Source: Methanobacteriota archaeon
Lineage (GTDB): Archaea; Thermoplasmatota; E2; DHVEG-1
Direction: 5' to 3'
Length of the DNA: 64,000 bases
NCBI GenBank assembly: GCA_963769885.1
Contig: CAVYNH010000007.1
Span: forward strand, 96,001-160,000
Positions 1-64,000 of the stretch are shown here, piece by piece. The first letter of the stretch is position 1. Every line of letters begins with the position of its first letter. Under the pieces are notes generated by a model that saw only the letters and a program-made list of their open reading frames with translations, did no database searches and had not been told where the DNA came from. The position numbers and the translations under genes were made by a program.

Positions 1-589
1 GTGGTCGGGTCTCTTTCCCGAAGAATCGGAGGTCTTGGCGGACTTGTAGCTGGTTGAGGCTGACGGCTTGTTGGATGAGGTCTCGGTTGAGGCCTCTGAG
101 TTCGCAGTAGCGGCGGTCTTGGAGGTCGCCGACGGCGCCGATGATCGCGAGACTGGCGAGGTCTGCATTCTGCGGGCTGATGGCGTGGGAGACGAGGAAG
201 GTGGCGCCGGCGCCGGAGAGTTCGTAGGAGCCGTCGTGGCCGAAGAGGTGGGGGTTGAGGTGGTGGGGGGCGTCGGTATCTGGGGTGCAGGCGTGGTGGT
301 CGGTGATGATTTTGGTGATGGTGGGGTATTGGGTGGCGATGGTGCTGCCTAGATCGGTGAACCAGACGAGGTCGTGGTTTTGGTCGGCGAGGCGGTCCAT
401 GGTGGGGGCGTCGATTTGTTTGATGCATTCGATGGTGGTGTCTTTGCCGAGTCGTCTGGTGGTTTGGAGGGCGATGGCGCCGGCGGTGATGCCGTCGGCG
501 TCGACGTGGGTAACGATGTGGACGGAGCCGGCTTTTTTGATGGTTTCGGCAAGCTGTCGGCTGCGTGTGAGTATGTCGGTTCCTCCCAT
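1..589 (-). CDS. DHH-family phosphoesterase (RecJ/GAN/HAN-like), 3'-truncated by window edge
   Basis: Manual translation from ATG at 589: MGGTDILTRSRQLAETIKKAGSVHIVTHVDADGITAGAI...WFTDLG...ITDHH...SGAG...GAVGDLQD. These are the DHH motifs. Absent from the ORF track because it runs off the window. Confidence 0.9.
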   Translation of the reverse strand, partial: MGGTDILTRSRQLAETIKKAGSVHIVTHVDADGITAGAIALQTTRRLGKDTTIECIKQIDAPTMDRLADQNHDLVWFTDLGSTIATQYPTITKIITDHHACTPDTDAPHHLNPHLFGHDGSYELSGAGATFLVSHAISPQNADLASLAIIGAVGDLQDRRYCELRGLNRDLIQQAVSLNQLQVRQDLRFFGKETRP

Positions 590-783
590 GTGGTGTTTGC
601 CATCCCTGCCTGATTTTTTTTGTATTGTGTCGGCGGGATTAAATAGCGTGATGTCTTTTTCTAGCTTTGCATGACGCTGATGGTTTGGGGTGGGTGGTCT
701 CCTGGGGGTTCTCCGAGGTATGGTTCGGAATGCATAAAAAGGGGGAGTGTTTTCTGTGGTGTCAGGTTTGAGAGGCGAGAGGA

Positions 784-1002
784 GTGCTTCTGAAGAAGAA
801 GGTGTTTGAGGAAGGGTCGATTAAGATTATTGTTGATTATGAGAAGTGTCAGGGTCATGGGGAGTGTGTGACCGCGTGTCCGGTGGATGTGTTTGCGGTG
901 GAGGGTGGGAAGGCGGTGGCGCGGCATTTGCAGGATTGTATTGAGTGTTGTGCGTGTGTGAATGCGTGTGCGAATTGCGCGATTGAGCATAGTTCCTGTT
1001 GA
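784..1002 (+). CDS. 4Fe-4S dicluster ferredoxin
   Basis: CQGHGECVTACP and CIECCACVNACA motifs. Start uncertain: GTG 784 overlaps the GAGGAG SD, so CTG 790 or GTG 802 are alternatives. Confidence 0.9.
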   Translation: MLLKKKVFEEGSIKIIVDYEKCQGHGECVTACPVDVFAVEGGKAVARHLQDCIECCACVNACANCAIEHSSC

Positions 1003-1043
1003 GTCGGTTGTCTTGGGTTGAGTCGTGGGAGTTGGTGGTTGTC

Positions 1044-62900: not shown

Positions 62901-63081
62901 CCTCCCCCCCACCACCCCCGAACTCACCTACTGGCACGACCACATCAAAACAGAAACCCGCGCCACCACCCTCACCCTCACCCCCACCCCCACCGGCACC
63001 CTCGTCAAAACCTGGGACATCGACGACCTCACCACCACCATCGGCATCAACCCCGACCACCAAAAACATCGGACCAAATAA
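59929..63081 (+). CDS. ileS: isoleucyl-tRNA synthetase
   Basis: EGPPTANGLPHPGH, GWDTHGLP, WTTTPWT, DQTRGWF and KMSKS. Confidence 0.97.
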   Translation: MVIAASQKYSPKDVEHRILQFWKEHDTFQQSIIQRKGYPRYVFLEGPPTANGLPHPGHILTRVMKDLVLRYQTMTGHYILRKAGWDTHGLPVEIEVEKKLGLTNKQDIERYGIEKFNEECRKSVFKYEHAWVEMSERIGFWLDMDHPYITLKNEYIESVWWSLKQAFDKGLLYKGHKVVPYCPRCGTALSAHEISQGYKTIEEPSIFVKFKIKDEDAYFLAWTTTPWTLISNVALAVNPTAIYLKIRYHDQTLIFAEERVTILLKGQEYEVLDSFPGKDLEYKEYEPLFCFAKPDRKAWYVVLADFVTMEDGTGIVHIAPAFGEDDYAVGRKYNLPVVQLVNLDGTFPQEVTPWCGQFVKTADPLIITELEKSGVLEGTKLYSHEYPFCWRCDSPLLYYAMESWFIAMPKVQDSLTRNNDKIAWYPTHLQYGRFGDFIKDVKDWALSRDRYWGTPLPIWICENKSCRHAICVGSVNELKTLTDNFPKTYDLHKPFVDDLHVTCPRCHGRLIREPDVIDCWYDSGSAFFAQWHYPFENKPEFTTNYPVDFICEALDQTRGWFYSLLAISTFLFDNTPYKSCLTLGLVLDKDNQKMSKSKKNYVDPTIILDHEGADALRWYLISANAPWMSTRFYEDAIKETLGKFILTLWNSYSFFTTYAALDHYDPTTTPPPIDTRPLLDRWILSRYHHLIADIHDNMSHFDTHKAARAIESFLIDDYSNWYLRRSRKRLWTETDTPDKHAAYATLYDITLGLTQLLAPFTPFITEDIYQNLKTPTMPHSIHLNDYPTSDPHYINPTLDDGMTKIRSLVEAGRALRSKIQIKGRQPLPEAVIITPTTTQDTIRPLISLLQDELNVKKITFNTDTTGLTIKTAKPKQATLGRRFKAKAKDIVHALDLMPNHDLTTQLLTHHHVTITVGAEAITLPDTDFDITEHEKPHYAKTQTADATLFLNTSVTPQLEAEGLARELIRRIQSMRKDLNLSVDDHITVTLTLPPTTPELTYWHDHIKTETRATTLTLTPTPTGTLVKTWDIDDLTTTIGINPDHQKHRTK

Positions 63082-63134
63082 GCCAAACAACCTTCCCCAA
63101 ACCTATTTGACCACCATCTGAATTCCACGAACCA

Positions 63135-64000
63135 ATGATCTGCCTAGGAATCGAAGGGACCGCCCACACCATCGGCGCCGGCATCGTCCACGACAACAAC
63201 GGACACTGCCACGTCCTTTCCAACGCCCTGAAAACCTATGCTCCCGCCCACGGCGGCATCCACCCCCGAGAGGCAGCCAACCACCACGCCCTCCACCTCG
63301 CCAACCTCATCCACGACTCTCTCACCACAGCCCAGATCTCCTCCAAAGACGTCGACCTCGTCGCCTTCTCTCAAGGTCCCGGCCTCGGACCCTGCCTGCG
63401 CACCGCCGCCACCGCCGCCAGAGCCCTCTCCCTTACTCTTAACGTCCCTCTCATAGGCGTCAACCACTGCGTCGCCCACCTGGAAATCGGCCGCGGTACC
63501 ATCCCCGAATGCACCGACCCGATACTGCTGTATGTCTCCGGGGCCAACACCCAGGTCATCGGCTTCGCCGAAGGCAAATACCGCGTCTTCGGAGAAACCC
63601 TCGACATCGGCATCGGCAACTGTCTCGATAAATTCGGCCGCCAACTCGACCTCGAATTCCCCTGCGGCCCAAAAATCGAGGCGCTCGCCACACAAGGAAC
63701 CCGATACCTTTCCCTCCCCTACTCCATCAAGGGCATGGACATGGCCTTCTCAGGACTATTGACCGCAGCAGAGGCATATTACCGCAACCACGAGCCGCTC
63801 CCGGACATCTGCTACTCTATGCAGGAAACCACGTTTGCGATGCTCACGGAAGTCACCGAGCGCGCCATGGCACATACGGAAAAAACCCAGGTCCTCCTCG
63901 GCGGCGGCGTCGCCAGCAACACCCGTCTCAGGCGTATGGTCGACACCATGGCCAAAGCCCGCGGCGCCTCACTCTACGTCCCCGCAAAAGACCTCTGCAT
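63135..64000 (+). CDS. kae1: KEOPS t6A synthase Kae1 (possibly Kae1-Bud32 fusion), truncated by window edge
   Basis: MICLGIEGTAHT, GGIHPREAA.HH, GPGLGPCLR, VNHCVAHLE, SGANTQ and ETLDIGIGNCLDKF. Confidence 0.94.
   Translation, partial: MICLGIEGTAHTIGAGIVHDNNGHCHVLSNALKTYAPAHGGIHPREAANHHALHLANLIHDSLTTAQISSKDVDLVAFSQGPGLGPCLRTAATAARALSLTLNVPLIGVNHCVAHLEIGRGTIPECTDPILLYVSGANTQVIGFAEGKYRVFGETLDIGIGNCLDKFGRQLDLEFPCGPKIEALATQGTRYLSLPYSIKGMDMAFSGLLTAAEAYYRNHEPLPDICYSMQETTFAMLTEVTERAMAHTEKTQVLLGGGVASNTRLRRMVDTMAKARGASLYVPAKDLC

Follow-up and report, generated by a model that had tools for sequence, protein, structure and literature searches.

The 64-kb window analysed here (C7:96001-160000 of the archaeal host genome G000, an assembly of 2.09 Mb in 7 contigs that is 92% complete and has ~55% GC) is divided into kilobase-scale tracts in which one strand is rich in C and A and the other in G and T, and we can conclude that these tracts are real and act like strand-specific mutational skew. 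On one strand C is written from all three other bases, and G on the other, in tracts ~2-6 kb long. These start mostly in AT-rich gaps that hold promoters, cross gene ends as well as promoters, are stronger the way transcription runs and die out before they reach a tract of the other polarity. The relatives of the host IleS at 64-73% are Thermoplasmata/Thermoplasmatales metagenome-assembled genomes, and from these relatives we take the host, a member of the Thermoplasmatota, to belong to the family DHVEG-1 (Thermoprofundales); the runs that contain at least one fifth of the sampled host words are wetland metagenomes of one study.

An earlier note on this DNA had listed eleven patches of extreme strand asymmetry, and all eleven were recovered where it had placed them, the G+T fraction being 0.25-0.36 in those of the C/A type and 0.64-0.75 in those of the G/T type. 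GC skew in 1-kb windows spans -0.68 to +0.66 over the 64 kb, and it should be mentioned that a uniform coding-strand bias alone already yields much of this raw swing. The positional component is nevertheless far beyond chance: when synonymous codons were redrawn from the genome-wide pool, which preserves proteins and strands, the s.d. of the skew was 0.215 and in 200 runs never above 0.221, compared with 0.289 in the real sequence, and 6.5 windows (at most 9) lay beyond a skew of 0.35 against 18 observed. Keto skew at fourfold-degenerate sites likewise has an s.d. of 0.43 per gene where 0.09 is expected, and the strongest C class (C 0.87, A 0.065, G 0.037, T 0.030) finds its mirror image in genes of opposite polarity (G 0.85, T 0.083, C 0.050, A 0.021). 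The skew is shared by twofold sites and by DNA between genes, and amino-acid use is also shifted, with Thr at 10.0% vs 5.1% and Val at 5.1% vs 10.7%. Such tracts are present on each of the seven contigs, where GC skew correlates negatively with AT skew (r = -0.66 to -0.88 per contig), and cover about one third of the genome including core genes; the earlier statement that housekeeping genes are affected stands and extends to intergenic DNA and amino-acid usage. The C/A patches are "nearly G-free", as that note put it, at fourfold sites of the strongest genes (G ~1-9%) and not overall, where G makes up 13-20%; and part of what it took for ordinary sequence between patches is probably recently gained AT-rich DNA. 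The low-GC unskewed stretches behave as recent arrivals because they are scarce among genes with an orthologue in the relative G001 (fourfold GC below 0.6 in 14 of 444, as opposed to 349 of 1459 genes overall) and because a GLUG gene of the window is absent from close strains. Genes were called with a simple self-trained caller, by which starts are approximate and some short genes are missed.

That the profile should be a sequencing or assembly artefact can practically be dismissed, for even though the assembly has some indel breaks (pheT and the second orc1), independent short-read contigs from several studies, taken from Logan and JGI/ENA assemblies (SRR29366204, SRR29366192 (96%), ERR10755944 (99.98%) and one species at ~80% identity), repeat it, as do other species, and it is carried by synonymous sites of intact genes. 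As for the breaks themselves, pheT (window 51823-53533) is split by a frameshift that is probably an assembly error, since run X1 is one base shorter at 52680 and the gene is whole (545 aa) in the 80% species, and the second orc1/cdc6 (C7:394396-395479) lies in two frames in the G000 assembly and is whole in relatives.

The argument for mutagenesis comes from substitution rates, which were estimated against 96%-identical strains and are unpolarised, with 14-79 counts per class; polarising via the 80% species was defeated by homoplasy, and insertion sequence (IS) copies carried too few changes. On the C-rich strand T>C reaches 0.53 in strong tracts vs 0.08 in flat DNA, G>C 0.11 vs 0.009 and A>C 0.082 vs 0.014, amounting to a 6-12 times faster gain of C from T, G and A, and G>A is raised as well (0.09 vs 0.028). 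The losses C>T, C>A and C>G are 0.026, 0.006 and 0.006 in strong tracts vs 0.025, 0.006 and 0.006 in flat DNA. Since C is lost at the same rate in both, it is gained faster and not protected, and since the gain is raised from three bases while the loss is unchanged, the pattern is one of added local mutagenesis including transversions and not of plain deamination or codon selection. Plain C>U and A>I deamination, as proposed in the earlier note, would yield only two transitions, whereas on the G-rich strand A, C and T all give rise to G (the excess is led by A>G, followed by C>G, T>G and C>T), with C>T raised ~3-fold and C>G and T>G 6-12-fold, and GC rises with the skew. Patchy base modification is likewise disfavoured, since the shift is nearly equal in every neighbour context (log2 C/T +2.8 to +3.5 in all 5' and 3' contexts), without the neighbour-base preference of a deaminase or methylation footprint. 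Furthermore, within 600 bp of the centres of C-to-G crossings T>C is 0.076 and C>T 0.033, compared to 0.30-0.34 and 0.03 in the lobes, whereas a half-and-half mix of two fork directions predicts ~0.27 and ~0.06; the centres thus fall below the fork-mix prediction, from which it follows that they are quiet and that the process is local.

The tracts are confined to one GC-raised clade of an AT-rich family. In an ileS tree G000, G001, L221, G021, G015, G018 and L031 form one clade (99/99, a grouping that composition may aid) with fourfold C in ileS of 0.82, 0.61, 0.74, 0.58, 0.29, 0.23 and 0.28, respectively, against 0.05-0.17 in the rest of the family, and long ileS branches accompany the skew. 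Kilobase skew autocorrelation is 0.71-0.85 in G001, G021 and G015, 0.26 in G018 and 0.12-0.18 in the AT-rich G008 and G003. Genomic GC rises along with the skew, from 28-38% to ~55%, but high GC alone is not the cause of the tracts, since G036, a member of the same class with 56% GC, has none.

Steps, crossings and the replication origin

The notion that the domains ignore gene direction is overstated, since in strong tracts 135,642 synonymous sites have the sense strand as their C-rich strand, vs 8,657 that do not (94%), although there are real exceptions; with this bias and the location of steps at promoter gaps the supposed independence from transcription is not supported either. Coding strand explains 36% and gene geometry 47% of the skew variance, of which ~5% is noise. 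The three divergent pairs said to share one G/T-rich strand do so by sense-strand composition (DHH gene C 0.83 vs GNAT G 0.74; saccharopine dehydrogenase C 0.84 vs paaK-like G 0.63; pheT C 0.79 vs DUF373 G 0.80), and there is a fourth pair of opposite sign, flagellin G 0.64 vs folE2 C 0.92. The gradients described within single genes are likewise there, C running 0.82-0.51-0.42 in the FN3 gene, 0.71-0.84-0.90 in ileS and from 0.79 to 0.57 in pheT. C-rich composition sets in within 300 bp of transcription-unit starts and has faded after 3-5 kb, and in stretches of 13-20 kb with all genes on one strand the skew rises and falls about every 10 kb. The C4 cluster of ribosomal-protein genes, in which gene names were assigned from position and sequence, swings on one coding strand from L3 (C 0.84) through an even stretch from S19 to L14 to L19e (C 0.87) and S2 (G 0.76), its G-rich sense genes reaching G 0.76-0.81, and the skew is therefore not tied to expression. 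Directly upstream of this cluster lies an AT-rich unskewed island (C4:264500-271500; fourfold GC ~0.25).

Sharp G-to-C steps fall at gene junctions in 176 of 219 cases, 99 of them divergent and 8 convergent. Among gaps of 200-800 bp, 47-48% of the divergent ones contain a step, as do 15-25% of the tandem and 3-7% of the convergent ones; in tandem gaps below 50 bp, inside operons, the share is 1-2%. Step frequency accordingly tracks the number of promoters in the gap. Gaps with a step also have a more AT-rich core than gaps within tracts (p = 4e-4, length-corrected). The C-to-G crossings (n=168, median spacing 10 kb) are gradual ramps of ~2 kb between lobes averaging 2.8 kb, and they are 2-fold enriched within 1 kb of convergent gene ends; 62 of the 168 lie more than 1.5 kb from any convergent junction with unchanged shape. 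A motif search at their centres gave only A/T tracts. The earlier proposal of a position-fixed, strand-specific mutagenic process is upheld in that it recurs about every 10 kb and is kept in relatives: orthologue skew correlates between G000 and G001 with r = 0.70, the sign is kept in 37 of 45 sense-G genes and the direction in 31 of 33 crossings. Rearranged orthologues leave equal residuals for position and for gene, and the broken neighbourhoods among them are too few to tell the two apart.

The predicted oriC, two inverted origin recognition boxes (ORBs) around an AT-rich unwinding element at C6:261744-261925, lies upstream of cdc6 and nucS, is conserved family-wide and falls exactly on a bidirectional G-to-C step of -1.10, with cdc6 at C 0.87 and CDC48, on the same strand, at G 0.55. 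A step this large is found in 9 of 299 tandem gaps (3%; 7% of the long ones). It is repeated in G001 and faint in the otherwise unskewed G018, and no replichore skew was found in G000, G008 or G003. The polarity at oriC is the reverse of that expected from exposure of the lagging template. The gyrB match on the same contig (C6:230084-233264) is interrupted at profile position 428 by ~1.3 kb, which may be an insertion, an intein or an IS.

Possible mechanisms

The reading we favour, to which we give somewhat less than an even chance, is a lineage-specific, local and strand-specific mutagenesis on top of normal replication, in the form of initiation-like, error-prone synthesis outward from many melted intergenic sites with yeast-type polarity. 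The start sites would be places where the duplex opens, namely promoters and the oriC unwinding element, and short rounds of initiation-like DNA synthesis would begin there and run outward. The first few kb would be copied at low fidelity. Most simply, the lagging-type nascent strand would wrongly take up dG opposite T, A and G, and dT opposite G, and such misinsertions would explain each of the four raised changes; formally, dC misinsertion in the leading-type strand would give the same result. The leading-type strand would in this way be left C/A-rich, as in yeast, whose origins are reported to have an A+C-rich leading strand (PMC3459929). The suggestion of many local origins thus survives as the leading family of explanations, with the start placed at the G-to-C steps. 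A bolder version, which we regard as rather doubtful, holds that each chromosome has 150-220 motif-free, promoter-linked synthesis starts besides oriC whose first kilobases are error-prone, that the genome is a fossil map of such scattered, eukaryote-like initiation in a prokaryote, and that the process drove GC from ~32% to 55%.

Extension of the mispairs could, speculatively, be the work of a proofreading-less PolB2-type polymerase. PolB acts on the lagging strand in Thermococcus (PMC13136892), and Sulfolobus PolB2 lacks exonuclease activity, makes G opposite A as its commonest misinsertion and extends dG, dA and wobble termini by preference (PMC8764526). PolB2 is defined by a His in place of the first Asp of motif C and by the absence of canonical exonuclease motifs (PMC8764526), and the host protein at C3:58950-61211 accordingly has an HGIVDS motif, with His for this Asp, and neither an ExoI DxE nor canonical exonuclease motifs. 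Its motif-A residue 374 is Tyr in five genomes of the clade and Phe in six AT-rich ones, but this may reflect shared descent only, and the unskewed G018 also has Tyr; PolB2 is a weak lead as the causative enzyme. The best PolB Pfam matches in the family are weak, as are the matches of family models to a divergent PolB-like protein of 956 aa that is found in 40 of 41 class members, in several with an intein-sized insertion. Among the named families tested in the genomes searched, gene presence fails to separate skewed from unskewed genomes: EndoV, NucS, UDG, EndoQ, RNase HII, HhH-GPD glycosylases, MCM, gyrase, dCTP deaminase, Orc1/Cdc6, the PolD small subunit (exonuclease motifs intact) and the 956-aa protein occur in both groups, and a Y-family polymerase, MutS, NurA, a reverse transcriptase and a histone were found in neither.

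Several observations weigh against synthesis starting at the steps. Flat regions and crossing centres are at background rates, and the steps therefore cannot be ordinary origins that replicate the whole chromosome. Tract peaks lie 1.5-2.5 kb from the C-to-G crossings and pairs of C and G lobes are coupled across these by a stereotyped gap of 0.5-2.5 kb, for which a source at the crossing would be the simpler explanation, and only about one fifth of G-to-C lobe pairs abut within 1 kb. Searches for k-mers, gapped k-mers and motifs by expectation maximisation at the G-to-C steps returned only A/T tracts; with neither border type yielding a motif, the site-loaded enzyme of the earlier note is left without motif support. 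The ORB-like score is raised in tandem step gaps (p = 0.002) and not in divergent ones (p = 0.57), and no convincing ORB was found among the matches at steps. The oriC step is absent in G015, and none is visible across two broken contigs in G021, both of which are skewed elsewhere; indeed the oriC calibration is a single locus that shifts the odds without settling the matter. PolB2 is furthermore present in seven family members outside the skewed clade, and the substitution counts are small and unpolarised.

The alternative that fares best, unlikely as we find it, is transcription-coupled mutagenesis or repair without replication, in which the template strand would be nicked, excised or resynthesised in the wake of RNA polymerase over the first 3-5 kb, and long leaders, read-through or cryptic antisense transcripts would extend over the G-rich sense genes. 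The 94% agreement of the C-rich with the sense strand, the onset within 300 bp of unit starts with fading by 3-5 kb, the scaling of step frequency with promoters per gap and the 2-fold enrichment of crossings within 1 kb of convergent ends all suit this notion, and in fungi coding strands are likewise C-rich 5' and G-rich 3' (PMC3315797). However, L30, S2 and CDC48 are G-rich on the sense strand and would need an antisense flux above their own, the sign flips within long same-strand runs, the 62 crossings far from convergent junctions have the same shape as the others, gene geometry captures no more than the 47% of variance given above where noise is ~5%, and no promoter is there to account for the antisense arm at oriC.

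A source at the C-to-G crossings, with the polarity of bacterial origins, seems improbable. A helicase or strand displacement, perhaps pushed by RNA polymerase, would here unwind outward and leave the G-rich strand single-stranded to accumulate A>I, C>U and abasic-site bypass, which is nearest to the idea of the earlier note. It requires no motif and is in agreement with the stereotyped antisymmetric shape, which peaks at 1.5-2.5 kb with or without convergent genes, and with the rise of both A>G and C>T on the G-rich strand. It is in poor agreement with the quiet centres (T>C 0.076 vs 0.30-0.34 in the lobes) and with the position of the true oriC on a G-to-C step; forks would also run head-on into ~90% of affected genes, no Y-family polymerase was found for the C>G and T>G bypass, and the sharp steps would need a barrier at promoters.

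Equally hard to favour is strand-biased gene conversion or heteroduplex repair between chromosome copies, with mismatches resolved to C on one strand, a fixation bias as supposed for GRINS. All three bases do move to C as GC rises, sequence context is lacking, NucS is present while MutS was not found, and the shifts in composition and amino acids match those of GRINS (PMC8256042). The needed bias would however, as calculated from standard diffusion theory, cut C>T to 0.4-0.6 of its value in flat DNA, whereas ~0.9-1.0 is observed; the tracts are moreover single-copy, and NurA was not found in the family, which makes canonical resection doubtful.

Selection on codon usage, RNA structure or nucleotide cost is very improbable, for while most genes prefer C-ending codons (C at 53% of fourfold sites), the exact mirror image in G-rich genes largely refutes it and intergenic skew, flips within one operon and the unchanged C loss speak against it too. 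Two further candidates were dropped: reverse transcription of mRNA, with no reverse transcriptase found and ribosomal genes G-rich, and break resection, with no NurA found and an amplitude that is not maximal at the step.

Tracts along the window

At the left end a C-rich minus-strand tract (1-2400; fourfold skew +0.6 to +0.8) holds, by Pfam assignment, a DHH gene with a C-rich sense strand and the GNAT and LPG synthase genes as G-rich exceptions, and is followed in the tandem gap 2405-2860 by a sharp bidirectional G-to-C step of -1.14 with an AT-rich core at ~2690-2740. The C-rich plus-strand tract of the pyrD cluster (3000-6500) fades rightwards, and beyond it lie a gradual C-to-G crossing (6250-7250, centre ~6750) and a C-rich minus-strand tract (7500-8800) that ends at a step near 8750. 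The stretch 1-3337, which adjoins the step at 2.6-2.9 kb, is a rearrangement or variable region, not syntenic with strains L218 and L219, where a PQQ/PKD gene and a 1297-aa gene lie upstream of pyrD. At 9013-9720 there is a 707-bp element, probably a small IS, which has seven copies at 98-100% and older ones at 81-88% and is absent from L218.

A radical SAM gene lies in a C-rich minus-strand tract (10000-10900), and across the divergent promoter at 10988-11226, with a sharp G-to-C step of -1.31, a plus-strand C-rich tract (11226-12400) covers the 5' end of the FN3/PKD gene and fades inside it in the thirds given above. The C-rich plus-strand tract 18200-21000 comprises flagellin (antisense, with a G-rich sense strand), folE2 and an isocitrate/isopropylmalate dehydrogenase-family gene, and is the same in strains L211 and L213. 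The GLUG surface-protein gene (13950-18014) and flagellin (18186-18779) are absent between their flanking genes in L211, flagellin also in L213, and flagellin shows the local skew despite this. A gradual C-to-G crossing near convergent gene ends (20950-21950, centre ~21450) leads to a C-rich minus-strand tract (22000-24800) that spans the divergent promoter 23496-23670 without a step.

The strongest C-rich plus-strand tract (28000-32100; fourfold skew to -0.89) contains the DUF7284 and DUF7286 genes and is identical in the ERR10755944 contig L217; these genes are part of a DUF7285-DUF7284-DUF7286 cluster (27834-32939) whose long gene is split in strain L216. It is separated by a quiet C-to-G crossing of lower GC (32500-34100, centre ~33550; fourfold GC 0.56-0.63), with the background substitution rates found near crossing centres, from the strongest C-rich minus-strand tract (34300-37600), that of an SF1 helicase gene with fourfold C 0.86. 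Further right, a sharp step of -1.12 at a divergent promoter (46974-47590) precedes the C-rich plus-strand tract of a methyltransferase and folD (47590-49100), which is the same in L220. The C-rich minus-strand tract with pheT (sense C-rich) and DUF373 (sense G-rich) (51800-54729) is bounded by a step in the tandem gap 54729-54806, and at 59716-64000 a step at the ileS promoter opens a C-rich plus-strand tract that rises through ileS, fades in tsaD and has the same sign in G001, G021 and G015.

Comparison with known systems

A literature search, incomplete in coverage, found no description of such tracts in archaea, and the rate analysis, the quiet centres, the clade limits and the polarity at oriC are new in this analysis. 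What emerges is an archaeal clade with a strand asymmetry of mitochondrial strength that flips every 5-10 kb, alters proteins and accompanies a rise in GC, and which offers a natural test of the determinants of GC content with AT-rich sister genera as controls. If the steps are initiation sites, these would be readable from sequence in uncultured archaea. Binning, detection of foreign DNA and phylogeny can furthermore be misled in skewed genomes.

In vertebrate mitochondria the H/L asymmetry makes the sense strand usually C/A-rich, mirrors it in genes on the opposite strand and raises A>G on the G/T strand. The tracts are of similar strength and share all three properties, but polarity flips every few kb (168 flips where the mitochondrial type has a single fixed exposed strand with one gradient), G and not T dominates the G/T strand, GC rises, and although A>G dominates, the increase in C>G and T>G, both transversions, is as great as that in C>T. 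Human skew N-domains are ~100-fold longer than the tracts. They have in common with them a sawtooth of sharp jumps and gradual return (as summarised in PMC3459929), but their jump at the origin is opposite in sign, the step at oriC being downward here and no replichore-scale bias being seen, in disagreement also with bacterial origin skew. Classical transcription-associated mutagenesis, with C>T on a G/T-rich sense strand, fits no better, since the sense strand is C/A-rich at 94% of strong sites. Fungal genes resemble the tracts in C-rich unit starts that drift to G at their ends, at fourfold and non-coding sites (McLean and Tirosh 2011, PMC3315797); here the scale is several genes, whole genes can be G-rich and the effect is far stronger. 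A 2026 survey, in which Thermoplasmatota are not named, found little strand-specific mutation in archaea (PMC12999951), a conclusion that the skewed clade contradicts at local scale, and the same study reports third positions in Haloferax that are C-rich along gene direction, which is a similar bias.

Two further likenesses are to GRINS and to yeast origins. GRINS (2021, PMC8256042), in a paper that makes no mention of archaea, show intense correlated GC/TA skews on the kb scale, of either sign and most marked at third positions, and shifts between Thr/His/Pro and Val/Gly, and the tracts indeed have correlated skews above 0.15 with their maximum at third positions. GRINS are however duplicated regions (>500 bp at >80%) with gene conversion between paralogues, whereas the tracts are single-copy, lie in core genes with orthologues over about one third of the genome and are phased by promoters; the only repeats of the window above 80% identity, the 707-bp IS and a 287-bp internal repeat, are not tracts. 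The skew at yeast origins (PMC3459929) is similar in that the leading-type strand has more C and A and the skew jumps at the origin, which here is the case in G000, G001 and faintly G018 and not in G015 or G021. It differs in that the amplitude is here near-saturated, the spacing ~10 kb and the organism a prokaryote with one ORB-marked origin, and in that the yeast type leads one to expect a leading/lagging mixture at undiminished rates between origins, where here the DNA is quiet after a few kb.

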